A DNA stretch of 41,934 bases from a virus. The stretch lies in UHGV virus genome UHGV-0119548. One strand, written 5' to 3'. The notes beneath the pieces are model-generated. The model was not told the origin of the DNA, searched no databases, and saw only the letters and a program-made list of their open reading frames with translations. Of the stretch, positions 307 to 7,230 are shown one piece after another; the stretch's first letter is position 1, and the number at the start of each line of letters is the position of its first letter. A program made the translations under genes and the position numbers.

Positions 307-337
307 AAAAAAAACGGGGCTTATGCCCCGTTTTTTA
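307..337. terminator. bidirectional intrinsic terminator
   Basis: hairpin ACGGGGC-TTAT-GCCCCGT (314-331) flanked by an A-run (307-314) and T-run (331-336); lies between convergent genes. Confidence 0.6.
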
Positions 338-3300
338 TGCTGTCGTTGATGTTCTAAATGATCCGGTGCCTCTTGCTACTATCATTGTTGGAGAATACAA
401 CGCGGTACAATATGCGTATCCTTCAGATGATGATGTTTGAGGACAATATATTTTCCCGATAATATCTGATGCTTTTAAACCAGAAAAAGCGCATTGCACT
501 GTTAATGTGCATCCACCATAAGGCACGTAATATGAAATTGTTTTGTTTTTATCTCCGCAACTAAACGTTACGTTATAAGTGGATCTATATTCACCAGACA
601 TTAATGAAATAGTCGCCATAAGCATAACTGATTTCGTCAATGCATTATCCGTGCTGTCTTTATATGTGATGGTTGCGCTATAACTTCCGTTATGCCCAAG
701 CACTCGATCTGGACCAACCCCCATGTTAGCAACGTCACCGACAAATGACTTTGCCTCTACTGTACCTTTAAACTTCCCGCTTGTGGCCTGAATCTCACCA
801 GTGAATTTACCAGATGTTGCGTACACCGTACCGCGTACAGTGACGTTGTTGAACTCCGCATTGCCGTTTTTATTTAGCATCCAGCCAGCCGAACCAGCTT
901 TATAGTTGGTTGACTGAATTTGCTGCGCAATCTTCGCGGTAGTGATTGATGCGTCTCTGATCCACGCATCACGGATGTAGCAAGCACCGTTAGTAACATA
1001 GAACGGGGTCTGATAGGAGCCACCTGCCGCAGTCATAAGCACGAAACGGTCAACGAGGAAAATACACTGCGATTGAACGTTAGTCCCGCTACCAGTAAGG
1101 CCGAGCGACATTCCTGTAGCGTATTTCATACCGTTTTTATCAGTGGCAATCTTAATTGAATATGACGCATCAACGTTACCTTTGAAGTCAGTCAGTGCTT
1201 TTGATGTCGTTTCTATCGCCGTTGTGTTTCCGTTAATAGTTACTTTCAACTGGTCGATTCTGGTTGACAATGCCTCGTCTGCCGTTGCCATAGCCTGTGA
1301 CCATTCCGTGATGCTTGAGTTTACATCGTCGAAAGATGCCGAGATCTGGCCAAATTTTTCCGCGCTTGATGTTTCATGCGTAGAAAGTGCAGTTGACACT
1401 TCGGATACTTTCGAATTAATCGTACTGGTAAGCGATGAGTTAAGGCTGCTGATTGCGTCAGTGCGTGCATTCTTCTCATCTGCGATCGCTTTATCCATCC
1501 TGGTTACGTTGCTTGTCACCTTGCTATCGAGCGTGGAAATTGACGCATTAACCCCGCTAATAGCTTCTGCGCGTGCGCTCGCCTCATCTGCGATTGCTTT
1601 ATCAAGACGGGAAACGCTCGCGTCGGTTTTGCTTTCAAGACTACTGACGCTGGCGTTAACGTTGCTAATAGCTTCTGCGCGTGCGCTCGCCTCATCTGCG
1701 ATTGCTGTGTCTACCCTTGCTATTTCCGCTTTTGTTTTTCTTTGTCCTTTCCTGTATTTCGCCTCAATAACAGTGCTCATCTTGCTTTGCGCCATTGAGT
1801 TATTAATAAGCGCCAGAGATGCGTTTTGCAGACCTGCTTTCGCCTGAACTATCTCGTCGCTGTTTTTATCAACCTCACTTTTAACGCTGCCAAGCGACGC
1901 GCTGATACCTGATATCGCCTGAGCGCGTGTGCTTGATTCGTCAGCGATAGCTTGATCAAGACGGCTAACACTGGCATTTGTGTTATTTTCAAGCGTTGTT
2001 AAATCAGCTTTAACCACTGTTATTGCGTCGCTTCTTGCCTGCGTTTCATCTGATATTGCCTTATCGAGGCGCTTAACACTGGCGTCAGTTTTCTTGTCAA
2101 GCGTTGAGATACTTGCGTTCACGTCGCTGATAGCCTGAGTACGCGCACTTGTTTCGTCTGCAATTGCCCGATCAAGACGGTTTACGCTGGCGTCAGTTTT
2201 CTTGTCAAGATTGCTTATTGAGGCATTTACACCGTTAATAGCTTCAGCGCGAGCGCTGGCCTCGTCAGCTACTGCGCGTTGCACATTAGAGATCTGACCT
2301 TTAAGGTTTGTGTCCATCACATTCATTTCTGCCGTGATGGTTTCCAGTGATTCCGCTGTCGCTTTTTTCTCTTCAGCGATAACGTTGTCAATGCGGTCAA
2401 TTTCCGCTTTCGTCTCTGTCCTGCCTTTCTTGTACTGAGCGGTAAGAGTTACGCGAGTGTTAGTCTGTGCAAGCGAGTTATTAATAAGAGCAAGTGAGGC
2501 GTTTTGCAGACTTGCTTTTGCTTGCGCTAGTTCGCTGCCAACTTTTTCGCTAGACACCTCTAGCGAGTCGATTCTCGACTCATGCTGTCCAATATCATCG
2601 GCGTTTTCCTTAACCTTTTTATAAAGATCTTCCGTTTCTTTTTTAAGTGTGTCTGTGTCAGCTTTTATTGATCCTGTTTCTATGGTTAGGTTGTCAGTTT
2701 CAGTCCTTAAATCGTCAGTTATATTGGTCAGATTATCAGTTGCAGTTTTGAGGTTGTCAGTAGCAGTTTTAAGGTCATTCGTAGCGCTTTCGATAAGATC
2801 AGTGCGGTCGCCTAGATCTTTAATGTCACCAACCATTTCTTTAAATTGTTTGGAATTCATTACGTCTTTGGTGACGTAATCGGTAATTTCGTCAAAGTTT
2901 TCTGTTGGCTTACCTGACGCTTCCACAAAGTCAGACACACCAAAAGCGTTACGCGTGCGCACATAAACGTAATATATGTGACCTGTATTCATGCCGCCAA
3001 ACGTCCACTGATGACCACGCCCCGTATATTGTGCTTTAGTGGTTACTGATGCCGGGTCGGTGATCTGTGTTTCACCTGAGTAATAAAACTCGTAACTGGT
3101 ATCAGTGGTAAGCGTTGTTCTGCTGATCGGATACACTGTTGCCTGGAATACACCAGGAACCCAATTAACGCCAATCGGGGCTGCTGGTGCACCAATAACC
3201 AGATCAACTATACTCTCAGCGCCCTTCATGCCCGTATCATTACGACCGCGAATGCCTAATGAGTAGGTTCCTGAATCAATGCCATAAAAATCATAACTGT

Positions 3301-5305
3301 AATTCGTAGTTTCGTAGCTTTTAACCACAGCGCCGTCGGCGTTATACACGCGAATCTCAAAGGTCAGGCGACGCGTTGTCGTCTGTGTTTCCCATGTTGC
3401 GCGACATTGAACCGTTTCAGATCCAACGTTTAACACCTTCAGATTTTCAATGTTCGGCACGCGGAAGTGATTAAGCGTGTCGTTATTGATCTCGAAGATT
3501 GCGCCATTATCGACTACGGCCTGCTTATGTGGATCATGCTGTGCGGCCTCGATGGTGTATACGCTGTTATTTTCTGTTTCTGCTACGCTGGTGATTCGAC
3601 ATAAAACGGGTTTTGCTGCGTTGGTTGATGCAGCAAAAACAGTACCGTTACGAATCCATGCCGGGGCGGATGCAAGGGTAATTTTGTTTCCGCTAACTCC
3701 AGTGATCTGGTGTTTTTTAAACTTGCCATCGCTATCAAGCAGGCTGATCGTATCTCCAGCGGAGATATATTTGGCATCAACCTTGTCTACAGTTATTACT
3801 TTGCCATTGTTCGCAACGATGCGACCGCCTAAGCGAGCGCCTGCGCGGTTATTGTCCAGGATTTCGATAATATCACCTGGCGTAAAGTGAATCGCGTCAC
3901 GGGCCATTTTAAACGTGAATTTTGACGGCTCGCGTTTTGCTGTTTCTATCAGCCATTTGCCAGCGCGGTACGCTTGCCCGCGTGACGTGCAACCGAAAGC
4001 CTCTAGCGTGGTTTCGTTATAACCATCGCGGGCGATCAGTTCATCGTCTGCCACGTATTCTTTTGATTGCTCCCAGCCGTTTTCCGGGTCAGTCCATGAC
4101 ACAATCACGGCGTTGTAAGATTCTGCGCGGGCAATACTTGAACGAGTAAACGCGCCATCAACTACGTTTGCATTTGTAATGGTGGCGATTGGATCTTGTG
4201 GCGCATCAATCATCACGGTAAGGCGCTGCCCGTCCCATAATGCAATACCACGGAACATGCCTGCAATATTATCCAGTAAGTCGCGTGCGCTAATTTGTTC
4301 CGTGATGTAAGCATTAAGCGTCATGCGAGGTTCAAAGCCGCCGTAACCATCGCTAACCAACTGATCGCAGTATTGGGAAAGCGTATATAATGCGCCATCG
4401 TCAACATCAATGTAACCAGCGTGGCGAGCAAGTCCGAAACGTTCATTTTTAACCAGATACCGGAAAAGCCATGCAGGGTTATTGGTGTACGCTTTTTTAA
4501 ATCCACCAAGCCATAAACCGGAATACGTGCGCGTTTCAGGGTTATAGTTGTCCGGCACATCAACAATCAGTCCGCGCAGATGATAAGTGCGGGCAGGAGT
4601 ATCAGTATACTGGTCATGGTCAATTACCGCGCCAGCTACAGCGGTATGAGGGTAAGACAGGTTATCGTCGATTATCTCGCTGTAACTGCTCCACCGCGTA
4701 TCATTACGAAGAAGATCGCTTTTGCTGTCTGGCGTTACGCGACGAACGCGAATATCAAACGGCTTTTCATCCGGTGCGTTGATAACGTGAGCTTCCAGGT
4801 ATTCACCACTCTGTTTACCAGGCCCGATCGTAATGTCTTTAACCAGCGACCACGTCGATGATGATGATGGCTTAACATCAACCATTAACATGACTGACGT
4901 GTTATATTGATTGCCCTTATCATCTGACTGAACTAGAGCATCAACGCCAACATTCAATCTAACGCGGGTGACGTTTGGGTCTGAAACGGTCCTGATTATT
5001 GGCGTATCGTGAGTTACCTTCGCATTGACAATAACAGTTGATTCAATGGCGTTAAAACCGTTAATCGGTGATTGGTCAGCTGTGCCATTGCGCCACGCTA
5101 TACTTACCCCAGGGATTGACGTATTTCCGTTGGCGTCAGTAACAGGCGTGTCATTAAGCATCACATCATTTAATGGCGCTTTCTGGTTTACCGGGCCGTA
5201 TATCGGCCCCTCGCTGAGAATGTCTAAAACACGATAAAACTGTTTATGATACAGGTTATCGTTCAATAAATGTGGTGTTTTGGCTTTGCCGCCGCCGCTA
5301 CTCAT
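335..5305 (-). CDS. J: central tail fibre / host specificity protein J homolog (1656 aa) with internal coiled-coil repeat insertion
   Basis: long ORF at end of tail module after L-K-I homologs; N-terminal and central blocks resemble lambda gpJ as recalled; C-terminal about 250 aa unlike lambda J. Confidence 0.9.
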   Translation of the reverse strand: MSSGGGKAKTPHLLNDNLYHKQFYRVLDILSEGPIYGPVNQKAPLNDVMLNDTPVTDANGNTSIPGVSIAWRNGTADQSPINGFNAIESTVIVNAKVTHDTPIIRTVSDPNVTRVRLNVGVDALVQSDDKGNQYNTSVMLMVDVKPSSSSTWSLVKDITIGPGKQSGEYLEAHVINAPDEKPFDIRVRRVTPDSKSDLLRNDTRWSSYSEIIDDNLSYPHTAVAGAVIDHDQYTDTPARTYHLRGLIVDVPDNYNPETRTYSGLWLGGFKKAYTNNPAWLFRYLVKNERFGLARHAGYIDVDDGALYTLSQYCDQLVSDGYGGFEPRMTLNAYITEQISARDLLDNIAGMFRGIALWDGQRLTVMIDAPQDPIATITNANVVDGAFTRSSIARAESYNAVIVSWTDPENGWEQSKEYVADDELIARDGYNETTLEAFGCTSRGQAYRAGKWLIETAKREPSKFTFKMARDAIHFTPGDIIEILDNNRAGARLGGRIVANNGKVITVDKVDAKYISAGDTISLLDSDGKFKKHQITGVSGNKITLASAPAWIRNGTVFAASTNAAKPVLCRITSVAETENNSVYTIEAAQHDPHKQAVVDNGAIFEINNDTLNHFRVPNIENLKVLNVGSETVQCRATWETQTTTRRLTFEIRVYNADGAVVKSYETTNYSYDFYGIDSGTYSLGIRGRNDTGMKGAESIVDLVIGAPAAPIGVNWVPGVFQATVYPISRTTLTTDTSYEFYYSGETQITDPASVTTKAQYTGRGHQWTFGGMNTGHIYYVYVRTRNAFGVSDFVEASGKPTENFDEITDYVTKDVMNSKQFKEMVGDIKDLGDRTDLIESATNDLKTATDNLKTATDNLTNITDDLRTETDNLTIETGSIKADTDTLKKETEDLYKKVKENADDIGQHESRIDSLEVSSEKVGSELAQAKASLQNASLALINNSLAQTNTRVTLTAQYKKGRTETKAEIDRIDNVIAEEKKATAESLETITAEMNVMDTNLKGQISNVQRAVADEASARAEAINGVNASISNLDKKTDASVNRLDRAIADETSARTQAISDVNASISTLDKKTDASVKRLDKAISDETQARSDAITVVKADLTTLENNTNASVSRLDQAIADESSTRAQAISGISASLGSVKSEVDKNSDEIVQAKAGLQNASLALINNSMAQSKMSTVIEAKYRKGQRKTKAEIARVDTAIADEASARAEAISNVNASVSSLESKTDASVSRLDKAIADEASARAEAISGVNASISTLDSKVTSNVTRMDKAIADEKNARTDAISSLNSSLTSTINSKVSEVSTALSTHETSSAEKFGQISASFDDVNSSITEWSQAMATADEALSTRIDQLKVTINGNTTAIETTSKALTDFKGNVDASYSIKIATDKNGMKYATGMSLGLTGSGTNVQSQCIFLVDRFVLMTAAGGSYQTPFYVTNGACYIRDAWIRDASITTAKIAQQIQSTNYKAGSAGWMLNKNGNAEFNNVTVRGTVYATSGKFTGEIQATSGKFKGTVEAKSFVGDVANMGVGPDRVLGHNGSYSATITYKDSTDNALTKSVMLMATISLMSGEYRSTYNVTFSCGDKNKTISYYVPYGGCTLTVQCAFSGLKASDIIGKIYCPQTSSSEGYAYCTALYSPTMIVARGTGSFRTSTTA
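1400..2350 (-). repeat. in-frame tandem coding repeats (about 105-108 nt, 35-36 codons) inside J
   Basis: exact 43-nt copies at 1556-1598 and 1664-1706; further near-copies (e.g. 2081-2103 vs 2185-2207); protein units like KTDASVSRLDKAIADEASARAEAISGVNASISTLDSK. Confidence 0.7.
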
Positions 5306-5318
5306 GGTTTTTCTCCTG

Positions 5319-5849
5319 TTAACTTACAACGTCTAATGCATCTCTGTTGTTGCTTGTGTCTATGCCTAACGATCCGACGTTTGAACCTATTTTCATTTCA
5401 CCCAACAGGATTGGCACTGGTCTACCCTGGCCTACCTTGTTTTCAACGCTGGTGTAGGTGTTGTTCGTTATGGTGTTATCTTGTGCGCTTTCTGCTGACG
5501 TCTTTATCTTCAGGTTGCGAGACATAAAGATCGAGAACGCAACGCTAACCACTGAAACACCAATCAAGATCCAACCCACAACACCAATCCCCGCAATACC
5601 ACCTTCAACTACTGGAGCAATAATGATGGTTGTTCCGTCAGGGTATTTACTGTTAACCGCTGCTGGCGCGGTCTTTTCGTCATAATCTTTTCCGGCAATT
5701 CGTAAGCGCAAAGGTGTATTTAAAAAAGCCTTCTTGAACTCCTGATCCTGCGCGGTCAATAGGCTAAGTCCTTGCGCTGGCGTATCAACGTTTAAACACA
5801 CTTTGCCGTAATATCTTCGAAGATTGCCCGTAAATCTAAATTTGAGCAT
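5319..5849 (-). CDS. I: tail assembly protein I-like (176 aa)
   Basis: position between K and J; central hydrophobic segment; RBS GGAG upstream of ATG at 5849. Confidence 0.65.
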   Translation of the reverse strand: MLKFRFTGNLRRYYGKVCLNVDTPAQGLSLLTAQDQEFKKAFLNTPLRLRIAGKDYDEKTAPAAVNSKYPDGTTIIIAPVVEGGIAGIGVVGWILIGVSVVSVAFSIFMSRNLKIKTSAESAQDNTITNNTYTSVENKVGQGRPVPILLGEMKIGSNVGSLGIDTSNNRDALDVVS

Positions 5850-6523
5850 TTGTCAGATCTCCATATTGAATGCGTTTGTCGAACATACGCGGGCCGCATT
5901 TGCTCGCGGCGGCTTAGCAGTCCGGCATTGTCATGATGCAAAACAGTGTTATCGCCCAGGAAAATCATCGCGTGGCATGGGTCAGCGCCTTTAAACGGCT
6001 GGCGGATAATCACGTCACCAGGCTGAATGCTTTGCGCATCAACCATGAAAAACCCGTTCAATGGCAGGTTTTTTATGTACAGGTTTTCCCCACGCAGCCA
6101 CCACCCATCGTGGCGCTCAAAGTCAGGTAGATCCACGCCGCAAAGGTGATAGGCGTCACGGAAAAGCGAGTAGCAGTCTGTTTTCCCGTGCTCAAATTTA
6201 CGGCCTAACAGGTGCGCTACCGGGAGAAACTTTCTCACCCTGCCACCTGAACATAAAAACCACGGCAGGCCGGAAATAACATGCTGTTGTCGATCCCGTG
6301 CCGACAATACCAGGGTATCATCGGTGTGGGAGTGGAAAACTGCTGTTATAACGCCTAATTCGTCAGCTTTGATATAATCGTCAGGCGAGATTTTAAAGCT
6401 GTTGTGCGGCGTTTCAGACACGTTTAAGCACGGGTAAAAATAATCGTTATCTATCACCAGGCCGCAAACTTCCTCACGCGGGTGTGCTGCTGCATAGCGA
6501 ATCATTTTATCTTCAAGCGCCAT
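5792..6523 (-). CDS. K: tail assembly protein K-like (MPN/JAB plus NlpC/P60 domains)
   Basis: HSHTDD (JAB-like) and KTDCYSLFRDAYHLCG (NlpC/P60 Cys) motifs; start chosen at ATG 6523 with RBS AAGGTGGG, 2 nt after L stop. Confidence 0.8.
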   Translation of the reverse strand: MALEDKMIRYAAAHPREEVCGLVIDNDYFYPCLNVSETPHNSFKISPDDYIKADELGVITAVFHSHTDDTLVLSARDRQQHVISGLPWFLCSGGRVRKFLPVAHLLGRKFEHGKTDCYSLFRDAYHLCGVDLPDFERHDGWWLRGENLYIKNLPLNGFFMVDAQSIQPGDVIIRQPFKGADPCHAMIFLGDNTVLHHDNAGLLSRREQMRPAYVRQTHSIWRSDKCSNLDLRAIFEDITAKCV

Positions 6524-6525
6524 AA

Positions 6526-7230
6526 TCAACCCACCTTGCTTGATCCTGGGAAACATGAAATTGGTAACGGATTCGGGCGCGGAAAACGCAAACGGCAACC
6601 GCTTAGGCGGTGGCTGCATTTATCCAGCTTTGGATCGCTTGTCGATTCGTCTTTGTCAGTAGCTACAGGGCCGCCACTATATCCGCAACCGTCGCCGCGA
6701 TATTGCCACTGGCAAACGTCAGCGAGGATTGTGCGCCCAGGGATAACCGCTTTATCAGCATCAATTGGCGTTGACAGTTCATATTGCACCTGGTCCGCTG
6801 TTTCTTCGCTCATCGCTTCAACGACGTAAAAAGACACAGCCTCAATAGATGGATCTGCATCTGGATTGCCGTTGGGGAAGTTAACGGCGTCCAGGTATTT
6901 TACTTCCACCTGGCGGCGAGTAACCTTCATTCCTCGCAGGTCGTTGAAATCGTTATTCATCCCGGTGATTAGCCCGCCAATGTTGGCTACTACCATTTGG
7001 GGGCGTGAGTAAACGCCTTCGTTTTTCATTTCGAAGCCAGTTGCCTCGATCGGGTAGCTGTTGTAAGCCAAGCCCTTCCAGATAACCGGGCCGTAATAGC
7101 CATTCACGCCGGAATGGAAGCGGATAACCTCGCCACCCAGGGGCGTGAGGTCTAATTCAAACAAGTCAATTACCGCGCCGACTCCGGCATCGACGGAATC
7201 AATAATCATTTCTCTCGGAATATTGCGCAT
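6526..7230 (-). CDS. L: minor tail protein L-like (234 aa)
   Basis: motifs YLDAVNFPNGNPDADP and CQWQYRGDGCGYSG resemble lambda gpL as recalled; order M-L-K-I-J. Confidence 0.85.
   Translation of the reverse strand: MRNIPREMIIDSVDAGVGAVIDLFELDLTPLGGEVIRFHSGVNGYYGPVIWKGLAYNSYPIEATGFEMKNEGVYSRPQMVVANIGGLITGMNNDFNDLRGMKVTRRQVEVKYLDAVNFPNGNPDADPSIEAVSFYVVEAMSEETADQVQYELSTPIDADKAVIPGRTILADVCQWQYRGDGCGYSGGPVATDKDESTSDPKLDKCSHRLSGCRLRFPRPNPLPISCFPGSSKVG

Follow-up and report, generated by a model that had tools for sequence, protein, structure and literature searches.

A J-type tail fibre gene with a repeat-built, predicted helical shaft that varies in unit number among related coliphages

The stretch of viral DNA analysed here (41,934 nucleotides of UHGV-0119548, hereafter the window) carries at 335-5305, on the minus strand, a gene that is probably J from a temperate E. 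coli siphophage of the mEpimmI (mEp021-like) type, with a helical shaft of variable length. How non-contractile tails deliver the tail mouth to the cell and open it is only now emerging, from lambda in 2024 and from the F-pyocins in 2026, and in both systems the part that moves is the central fibre's helical shaft. The phage group to which the window belongs offers a natural series of shaft lengths, from 0 to 13 repeat units across the group, including alleles of 7, 8, 9 and 10 units whose backgrounds hardly differ. With such a series one could measure the effect of shaft length on adsorption through O-antigen or capsule, and on triggering and ejection.

A J homologue with an expanded shaft

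The open reading frame encodes 1656 aa and was assigned to J, the tip attachment or central tail fibre protein, by its Pfam domains (FNIII-A_GpJ, Phage-tail_3, Ig_J, Ig_J_second and Phage_Tail_Tip), by PHROG 31 ('central tail fiber J') and by a match to the lambda J structure (8iyk chain J, E 3.6e-187), which aligns residues 1-851 with lambda 1-858 and adds a further segment at window J residues 1356-1528. The initial annotation had recognised a J-like fibre about 500 aa longer than that of lambda; the measured difference is 524 aa (lambda J, 1132 aa). As the protein scores 725 bits against the curated NCBIfam lambda_TipJ cutoff of 1950 bits, we regard it as a J homologue but not, strictly speaking, as an orthologue of lambda J.

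Upstream of J, on the same strand, lie the tail-tip genes I (5319-5849), K (5792-6619) and L (6526-7230), so that the block at 5319-7230 together with J has the order L-K-I-J, annotated alike in mEp phages and prophages. Window J is 84-88% identical to mEp-phage J at the nucleotide level across 65-80% of the gene, and its residues 1-820 are 92-95% identical at the amino-acid level. All seven related phage genomes match the first 25 kb of the window at 87-89% identity; five of the seven each cover 83-85% of it, and coverage is lower for mEp013 (77%) and mEp515 (74%). A scan for promoters and terminators near the J stop codon gave none above shuffle background, and the small ORF downstream of J showed no similarity to published exclusion lipoproteins. 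A secreted protein of 81-84 aa is encoded at 41-295. We also considered the plus-strand ORF at 1143-1847 (234 aa) as a gene and rejected it: it is antisense to the Ala/Ser-rich repeats and is read as a by-product of their composition.

The hub and FNIII/Ig domains (aa 1-811; 2873-5305, minus strand) are collinear with lambda J from residue 1 to about 818, with 39.6% identity over 834 columns for the N-terminal part. The lambda alignment is then interrupted between J residues 851 and 1356, and here, at the site of lambda's 53-residue shaft (lambda 809-861; PMC11101478), lies an expanded, predicted alpha-helical shaft (aa 812-1347; 1265-2872, minus strand). As judged from the alignment, the approximately 500 extra residues stand in place of the lambda shaft, with the FNIII domains before them and the beta-prism fibre after. 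At about 535 residues, the shaft enlarges roughly tenfold a domain that lambda J already has and is no foreign insertion. An earlier description of the region as a repeat coiled-coil insertion thus holds in that the segment is helical in prediction, built of repeats and confined to a single site; "insertion" gives way to expansion of lambda's own shaft. Among related J proteins of solved structure, for example the F2 pyocin fibre, coiled coils of intermediate length occupy this same site. Following lambda gpJ (PDB 8iyk, 8xck and 8xcj; PMC11101478), with which it shares domain order, a collinear hub and FNIII region and a straight fibre homologous by profile, window J would comprise a hub, FNIII domains, an alpha-helical shaft, a beta-prism straight fibre and an Ig-like receptor-binding domain. 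The lambda shaft, in contrast, has neither the 36-residue array, nor the heptad array, nor the small-residue motif described below.

Pfam gave zero matches on the shaft region, which yields weak SMC-type coiled-coil matches. The shaft contains no proline in 542 aa, and its hydrophobic periodicity is 3.59-3.60 in both blocks of 36-residue repeats and 3.54 in the heptad zone. AF2, run on a monomer of aa 1155-1500 with a 45-sequence alignment, predicted a single uninterrupted helix over aa 1156-1319 (pLDDT mostly 94-97) and a further helix at aa 1335-1347, followed by strands from 1349. The helical evidence consists of a monomer prediction and of periodicity. Three J chains would run in parallel in a trimeric coiled coil with almost no supercoiling.

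Repeat architecture and variation in copy number

The shaft is made of repeats that preserve register, namely eight heptads and then two blocks of 36-residue units. At 3.6 residues per turn each of these units spans ten turns of helix, divided into two hendecads and two heptads. On the minus strand, the heptads (aa 841-897, TDNLKTA type, 21-nt period) occupy 2615-2785. They are followed by unit B1 (aa 919-964, ...AKASLQNASLALINNS...QYKKGRTE; 2414-2551) and, directly after it, by repeat block 1, which has five 36-aa units, the first of them degenerate (aa 965-1144; 1874-2413). Unit B2 (aa 1145-1190; 1736-1873), a paralogue of B1 that is predicted to be helical and is continuous with the repeats, precedes repeat block 2, which has three 36-aa units (aa 1191-1298; 1412-1735) and is the site of recent copy-number change. 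A repeat search on the DNA found a 108-nt unit seven times (64-90% identity), and a profile built from the repeats found eight units, at aa 965-1144 and 1191-1298; in block 1 the first unit scores 8.7 bits and the others 59.8-66.8 bits. It is this search and the protein profile that define the 108-nt array. Tandem Repeats Finder, which had been proposed as a check, proved unsuited to it: even at a low threshold it reported only the 21-nt heptad array (period 21 at 2735-2785), because most copies of the 108-nt unit are too diverged.

The extra length had been ascribed to a run of 35-36-residue repeats, exemplified by what is here aa 1226-1262. Eight such units are indeed present, and they account for 288 of the approximately 500 extra residues, the rest being heptads, the two 46-aa units and a non-repetitive helical tail. 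A larger duplication said to carry one motif twice is likewise real in part. A 46-residue LQNASLALINNS unit stands ahead of each 36-mer block (B1 and B2), and the corresponding 69-nt pair (2466-2534 and 1788-1856, 678 nt apart) is 78% identical. LQNASLALINNS occurs twice; GLQNASLALINNS, in contrast, is exact in one place only, and its second copy reads SLQNASLALINNS. The two 43-nt copies reported as exact are identical, and the match extends no further: copy 1 (1556-1598) lies inside the unit at aa 1227-1262 and copy 2 (1664-1706), a candidate crossover substrate, inside the unit at aa 1191-1226.

We counted 36-mers in 49 related J genes drawn from IMG/VR loci and E. coli genomes and found from 0 to 13 units (J of 1318-1828 aa). 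The number varies inside every multi-member C-terminal cluster except one pair. In one series of prophage alleles, which carry 7, 8, 9 and 10 units, the sequences are otherwise the same to within two residues, and at the DNA level the 8-, 9- and 10-copy alleles are separated by one or two substitutions plus indels of 108 nt. In GN04592 and LP-26-E1-261 the hybrid unit TDASVSRLDKAIADEASARAEAISNVNASVSSLESK occurs one or two extra times, and this extra unit is the hybrid predicted for a crossover within the exact 43-nt repeat. In the heptad zone, indels among relatives measure 7, 14, 21 or 28 aa. Copy number therefore changes by unequal homologous recombination or slippage between units, always by whole units, as the initial annotation had anticipated; aligned J homologues differ in repeat number, and the repeats are not invariant conserved J sequence. 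Judged from their sequences, natural prophages would differ in fibre length through repeat number. Among matches from a collection of 5.8 billion proteins, full-length J proteins were absent and most were C-terminal fragments.

Collapsed or expanded repeats in assemblies could mimic such differences, and the three identical tandem 108-nt units of LP-26-E1-261 are open to short-read mis-assembly. However, the 7-, 8- and 9-copy alleles recur in two, at least six and two independent records, respectively (RefSeq complete genomes and IMG/VR contigs), and six sequenced mEp phages likewise span 5 to 13 units, compared with 8 in window J, making a general artefact very improbable. The repeats might also simply recombine, leaving an array length without selected function. 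The broad scatter of 0-13 units, which has no obvious tie to C-terminal type, and the very recent date of the changes are what such neutral instability would give. We nevertheless think it unlikely, as every indel observed in close allele pairs or in the heptad zone adds or removes complete units, nearly all relatives keep arrays, and the unit sequences are strongly constrained: across 112 distinct 36-mers E15 and R19 are invariant and A11, D14, A18, A22 and A28 are conserved in at least 94%.

Repeats in J are already known for this group. The J proteins of mEpimmI phages were reported to differ in size, with 'repeats of different length (positions 950-1,475)', after which come a conserved stretch and a terminus that varies (PMC11893012, Front Microbiol 2025), and window J, which belongs to the same phage group and shares its gene order and repeat family, shows the same pattern of variable repeats, conserved stretch and variable terminus. 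That paper offers no analysis of the repeat unit or its helical register, of how the repeats recombine, or of series of near-identical alleles (PMC11893012). We found no direct precedent in the literature for repeat-number variation in phage fibre coiled coils.

C-terminal fibre and receptor-binding region

Downstream of the shaft, the beta-prism central straight fibre (aa 1348-1500; 806-1264, minus strand) comprises a PF09327 match at aa 1363-1500 (E 1.8e-39) and predicted strands just upstream; these start at aa 1346 or 1349 in the AF2 models, and aa 1346-1372 are beta in both. Three of the matches from the protein collection carry a precomputed Pfam PF28217 annotation just upstream of PF09327. 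The remaining residues (aa 1501-1656; 338-805, minus strand) form a C-terminal receptor-binding region of its own sequence type.

The C-terminus had been described as unlike that of lambda J. At the level of plain sequence this is so: BLASTP found no match between the C-terminal 156 aa and either lambda or OmpA-using relatives, identity to LamB-using relatives is at most 37%, and the last approximately 90 aa cannot be aligned with lambda gpJ by sequence. At the level of profile and predicted fold it is not. In hhalign, aa 1360-1564 match lambda J 841-1038 with 98.6% probability, and when aa 1340-1656 are modelled with AF2, Foldseek aligns the result with the fibre and receptor-binding domain of lambda gpJ (gpJ713) over all 317 columns (E 6.6e-16), the best match being the LamB-bound open state. 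The predicted C-terminal fold is a beta-sandwich (pLDDT 72-95). Structure prediction, which had been suggested for the last 300 aa or so, thus argues against a divergent fold, and the region keeps its own sequence type; modelling places the divergence in the sequence alone and gives a fold that matches lambda's.

The region is 30-43% identical to the J termini of HK97, 9g, Seuratvirus and Enterobacter phages, and its cluster is the largest of 13 (19 members at an 80% identity threshold). The six mEpimmI isolates carry 5-13 units, compared with 8 in window J, whose C-terminal cluster lies outside both characterised receptor classes, the LamB users and the OmpA users. Because of this separate clustering, it is plausible that the receptor specificity differs. 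The repeats also act as crossover points at which receptor-binding tips are joined anew to hub domains, and this bears on host-range evolution and on engineering fibres or tailocins of chosen length.

Possible roles of the shaft

If the shaft is a straight helical rod, each 36-mer would add about 5.3 nm, giving roughly 75-80 nm here, and 0-13 copies would alter the shaft by up to about 69 nm across the family. Shaft length would then set the distance of the receptor-binding tip from the tail mouth. The paper on mEpimmI phages describes tails of about 130 nm and leaves a strikingly long tip fibre unmentioned (PMC11893012); as a rod of about 80 nm should have shown in that work, the shaft may bend, fold back on itself or be flexible.

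Homologous shafts move. On LamB binding the lambda shaft flips, residues 841-861 become beta strands and the fibre shortens from 29.7 to 13.2 nm (PMC11101478), and in F7 pyocin a 163-residue coiled coil converts to beta-prism in a step required for killing (PMC12874032). The central fibre of F-type pyocins (F7, PMC12874032; F2/PA0641, bioRxiv 10.64898/2026.02.24.707460, PDB 25vf) is a J homologue in which a long trimeric coiled coil leads straight into a PF09327-type prism. Window J residues 1204-1482 align with F2 residues 911-1185 (E 6e-29), covering most of the trimeric coiled coil resolved by cryo-EM at 907-1084 (bioRxiv 10.64898/2026.02.24.707460), and aa 1346-1372, beta in our AF2 models, align with part of the F2/F7 pre-ejection coiled coil. 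As in the fold-switching fibres of He et al. 2026, a long predicted helix lies immediately upstream of beta-prism seed strands. Window J and the pyocin fibre share an ExxARAxA element, with Glu and Arg four residues apart, and alternating SxSxxMxxLxS motifs. The pyocin coil, however, has 163-178 residues, mostly heptads (periodicity 3.51), and no tandem array, whereas that of window J is about three times as long, has a periodicity of 3.60 and differs in copy number between relatives; of the two, only the pyocin coil is known to switch fold. By analogy with lambda and the F-pyocins, the shaft is probably a metastable element that keeps the FNIII plug closed, and it would probably have to collapse or refold after receptor binding for the tail mouth to get to the outer membrane.

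The fold-switch motif SxSxxMxxLxS has 28 matches in aa 821-1362, compared with 7.7 +/- 2.7 in shuffles, although these matches all descend from a single ancestral unit, and moving the register by 7 residues gives a fit that is nearly as good. Run on F2, the motif regex picks out Glu1039, the published M position. In every 36-mer, reverse and forward copies alternate at spacings of 15 and 21 residues, and Glu or Asp at motif position M is paired with an Arg four residues off, as in the invariant E15/R19 pair. Motif and homology, which are what link the repeats to fold switching, suggest a tentative reading in which the 36-mer fits two registers, as ten helical turns or as one beta-hairpin layer of a beta-prism, so that the array would be a metastable 'reel-in' spring tunable by copy number. 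The one reverse and one forward F-pyocin motif of each unit would suffice for one hairpin layer; each unit would extend the reach by about 5.3 nm before binding and, once refolded, by about 1 nm; and the fit to two registers would let whole units be gained or lost without disturbing either state. If so, natural alleles would differ in capture distance and in contraction stroke or stored energy, and the 7-, 8-, 9- and 10-copy alleles would provide a direct test of force generation by non-contractile tails. AF2, on the monomer of aa 1155-1500, did not predict a beta state for the 36-mers, giving only the long, confident helix.

That helix, confident even when AF2 is given an alignment, is also what a passive spacer would show: a stable coiled-coil stalk that never refolds, whose sole role is to reach through O-antigen or capsule to an outer-membrane protein and whose copy number tracks the thickness of the surface layer. 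We hold this to be a real possibility, if still short of an even one. Stalks of YadA-family trimeric autotransporter adhesins are tandem-repeat coiled coils in which variable repeat number sets reach; the motif xLDxAIxDExxxR makes an 18-residue array in a YadA-anchor protein (P0086, with 13 copies of this shorter version of the window J motif) and 33-47-residue arrays in further large proteins, some of which have domains of phage tails or fibres. By this analogy, use in a plain stalk with no triggering role is possible. The likeness is confined to the stalk repeat motif, as Pfam found no YadA anchor (PF03895) in window J, which, unlike the adhesins, is a virion protein with no autotransporter context. 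Copy number also varies freely within C-terminal types. On the other hand, a rigid stalk of about 80 nm would keep the tail mouth far off the membrane, so that some collapse or bending would be needed, and the homologous shaft rearranges in lambda and F7 pyocin. Conservation of solvent-exposed Ala and Ser is far above what a plain stalk needs, although the need to pack a trimer tightly might by itself explain why Ala-rich positions beside the core are conserved.

It is less probable, and on balance doubtful, that the shaft, especially its one or two LQNASLALINNS units, serves as a docking platform for side fibres encoded downstream of J, with repeat number setting their spacing or number. Side fibres of F2 and F7 pyocins do attach to the central coiled coil, a fibre gene lies directly beyond J in mEp-type genomes, and relatives carry one or two B units. 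The side-fibre gene, however, falls outside the window, unit B2 is an ordinary continuous helix in AF2, and the recent changes in copy number have hit the 36-mers and left the B units unaffected.

Domain layout and helical shaft of J

The minus-strand ORF at 335-5305 encodes a product of 1656 aa, which PHROGs assigns to 'central tail fiber J', and is preceded by ORFs matching the tail-tip genes L, K and I. In a Pfam search, the J-specific domains FNIII-A, Phage-tail_3, Ig_J and Ig_J_second lie within aa 88-811 and PF09327, a tail-tip fibre domain, covers aa 1363-1500; aa 812-1362 and 1501-1656 have no Pfam match. In a search of solved structures, aa 1-851 aligned with lambda J 1-858 and aa 1356-1528 with lambda 838-1000; thus, the extra residues, about 500, all lie at one site, with the second FNIII domain before it and the beta-prism fibre after it. 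The initial annotation had called this extra length an insertion. The length is real, but since lambda J has an alpha-helical shaft of 53 residues (809-861) at the corresponding position (PMC11101478), it is better seen as the enlargement of a domain that J already has.

The tandem repeats reported earlier are genuine. Along with the exact 43-nt pair (1556-1598 and 1664-1706), we found seven copies of 108 nt at 64-90% identity, and a profile made from the units recovered eight units of 36 residues each, which occupy aa 965-1144 and 1191-1298. As a 46-residue unit with LQNASLALINNS stands before each of the two 36-mer blocks, the larger duplication that had also been proposed takes the form of 'unit B plus repeats', with a 69-nt pair spaced 678 nt apart. 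Upstream of the 36-mers lie eight TDNLKTA-type heptads (aa 841-897; a 21-nt tandem repeat in the DNA). The 542-residue shaft region is free of proline; the heptad zone has a hydrophobic periodicity of 3.54, and each of the two 36-mer blocks one of 3.60. Read from the consensus, the core spacing per 36-mer appears to be 3,4,4,4,3,3,4,3,4,4, a register that would comprise two hendecads and two heptads and give each 36-residue unit ten turns. From an alignment of 45 sequences, AF2 predicts a single unbroken helix for unit B2 and three repeats (aa 1156-1319), with pLDDT 94-97 across most of it, and places the first beta strands at aa 1349. Antisense to the repeat region runs a plus-strand ORF of 234 aa (1143-1847), which most probably arises from the Ala/Ser-rich composition of the repeats.

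Copy-number variation and mosaicism

The J shaft is an expanded helical shaft of variable copy number. The comparison covered 49 complete J genes: those of the window, seven phages and four E. coli prophages, and those on 37 IMG/VR contigs. The shortest product has 1318 aa and the longest 1828 aa; repeat units number 0-13 and B units one or two, and repeat number differs within nearly all C-terminal clusters of more than one member. The window's own cluster includes alleles with seven units (loci L018 and L024), eight (prophage 2017C-4173W12 and several contigs), nine (prophage GN04592 and locus L021) and ten (prophage LP-26-E1-261) that show at most two residue differences over at least 1620 aa; the DNA of the 8-, 9- and 10-copy genes is one or two substitutions plus 108-nt indels apart. 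The extra unit, TDASVSRLDKAIADEASARAEAISNVNASVSSLESK, joins the start of unit 1227-1262 to the end of unit 1191-1226, a hybrid make-up matching the expected product of unequal crossover or slippage inside the exact 43-nt repeat. The earlier proposal that repeat number varies by recombination is thus borne out. The heptad zone of relatives likewise differs in length, by 7, 14, 21 or 28 residues; both modules therefore vary only in register-preserving steps.

When we compared the window J gene with that of prophage 2017C-4173W12, all 244 substitutions lay between gene nt 34 and 3566; the final 1405 nt (3567-4971) were free of them. The window gene is thus a recombinant mosaic, with its breakpoint near window 1739 (gene nt 3566). 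As this is the start of repeat block 2, it suggests that the repeats serve as junctions for the exchange of receptor-binding modules.

The closest phages to the window are mEp021, mEp010, mEp013, mEp044, mEp515, mEp554 and MagusPhagus. They are the mEpimmI group, whose 2025 description reports J proteins of unequal size with 'repeats of different length (positions 950-1,475)', followed by a conserved stretch and then a variable terminus, and a need for LamB in four phages and OmpA in two (PMC11893012). The basic observation is therefore already in print, as one sentence without analysis; the structural interpretation of the repeats and the near-identical allele series are new and of use for experiments. 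The window J gene is a new member of this published family with a new C-terminal type.

Parallels with fold-switching fibres

In lambda, the helical shaft lets go of the FNIII plug upon LamB binding, J 841-861 become beta strands atop the prism, and the fibre goes from 29.7 to 13.2 nm (PMC11101478). In the F7 pyocin protein homologous to J, the trimeric coiled coil in this position spans 163 residues and turns wholly into beta-prism upon cell contact, and killing is lost in mutants barred from the beta state; the authors describe a motif, SxSxxMxxLxS, that alternates in orientation and pairs Glu/Asp with an Arg four positions away (PMC12874032). A preprint on F2 pyocin resolves the coil at 907-1084, with side fibres docked on it (bioRxiv 10.64898/2026.02.24.707460).

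Four observations tie the J shaft to this system. J aa 1204-1482 align with F2 911-1185 (E 6e-29), and the repeat core DEASARAEA has its counterpart in SEQTARANA of F2. Across 112 distinct 36-mer units, E15 and R19 never vary, and conservation is 88-99% for the small residues A11, A13, A18, A22 and A28. The F7 motif has 28 matches in aa 821-1362, all copies of one ancestral unit, versus 7.7 +/- 2.7 in shuffles, and the same regex finds the published Glu1039 position in F2. Each 36-mer carries one reverse (ASVxRLDxAIA) and one forward (ARxxAIxxVNA) copy, 15 and 21 residues apart, in a register that fits almost equally well when shifted by seven residues. As a caveat, stalk repeats of the same motif also occur in a YadA-anchor adhesin and in further large proteins, some of which carry domains of phage tails or fibres. 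AF2 of the J repeats gave helix only, with no other state predicted. We take the expanded helical shaft of variable copy number as shown. It probably forms a trimeric rod of ~5.3 nm per unit, whose length would set reach and which would have to collapse after binding. Fold switching of the repeats themselves is possible but less likely than not.

In a representative protein search (P0083-P0100), tandem arrays of xLDxAIADExxARxxAI occurred in only 74 of 1.84 billion protein clusters, with periods of 18, 33, 35, 36, 37, 42 and 47 residues. Carriers include a J-like protein of 1922 aa with ~16 copies, a T5 pb4-like fibre with collagen repeats and, in an 18-residue version, the YadA-anchor adhesin. 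Pfam family PF28217.1, precomputed just upstream of PF09327 on J-homologue fragments P0001, P0006 and P0013, may be a newly built model that covers the distal shaft or the repeats.

The receptor-binding terminus and neighboring genes

The C-terminus had been described as unlike lambda J. For sequence this stands: in BLASTP, aa 1501-1656 are 31-37% identical to LamB-using relatives and MagusPhagus and match neither the OmpA users nor lambda, and tblastn finds 30-43% matches in J termini of HK97, 9g, Seuratvirus and Enterobacter phages. For the predicted fold it does not. Profile comparison aligns aa 1360-1564 with lambda J 841-1038 (probability 98.6%), and the AF2 model of aa 1340-1656 is all-beta (mean pLDDT 83), its top PDB match being LamB-bound lambda gpJ713, the open state (E 6.6e-16, 317/317 columns, 16% identity). 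The C-terminal fold is thus predicted to be lambda-like, while the sequence type is separate.

Convergent on the J stop is a small plus-strand ORF (41-295; 84 aa, or 81 counted from ATG) whose product combines a Sec-type signal peptide (MKKLIVACILSALSFGAFA/SVNS) with two cysteines at the C-terminal end. The ORF sits in the exact slot of the superinfection-exclusion lipoproteins of mEp010-type and mEp021-type phages, but its product has no similarity to them and no lipobox where the signal peptide would be of normal length. The product (WP_000734009.1) is kept in 4/4 examined prophages with the same J C-terminus, and may be an exclusion factor that pairs with this receptor-binding type.

Between I and J, mEp515 and mEp021 have an extra 189-aa ORF (2437-3003 in both loci), annotated as a hypothetical protein and an HNH endonuclease, respectively; the window, where the end of I at 5319 is followed by the start of J at 5305, and the other relatives are without it. 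Four E. coli prophages with the same J type (L009-L012) occupy two chromosomal sites, by truncated abgT or by ydaN/zntB. Just past J and the small ORF, beyond the window edge, they carry a 'phage head spike fiber domain' gene (~598 aa), whose product may be a side fibre docking on the shaft.
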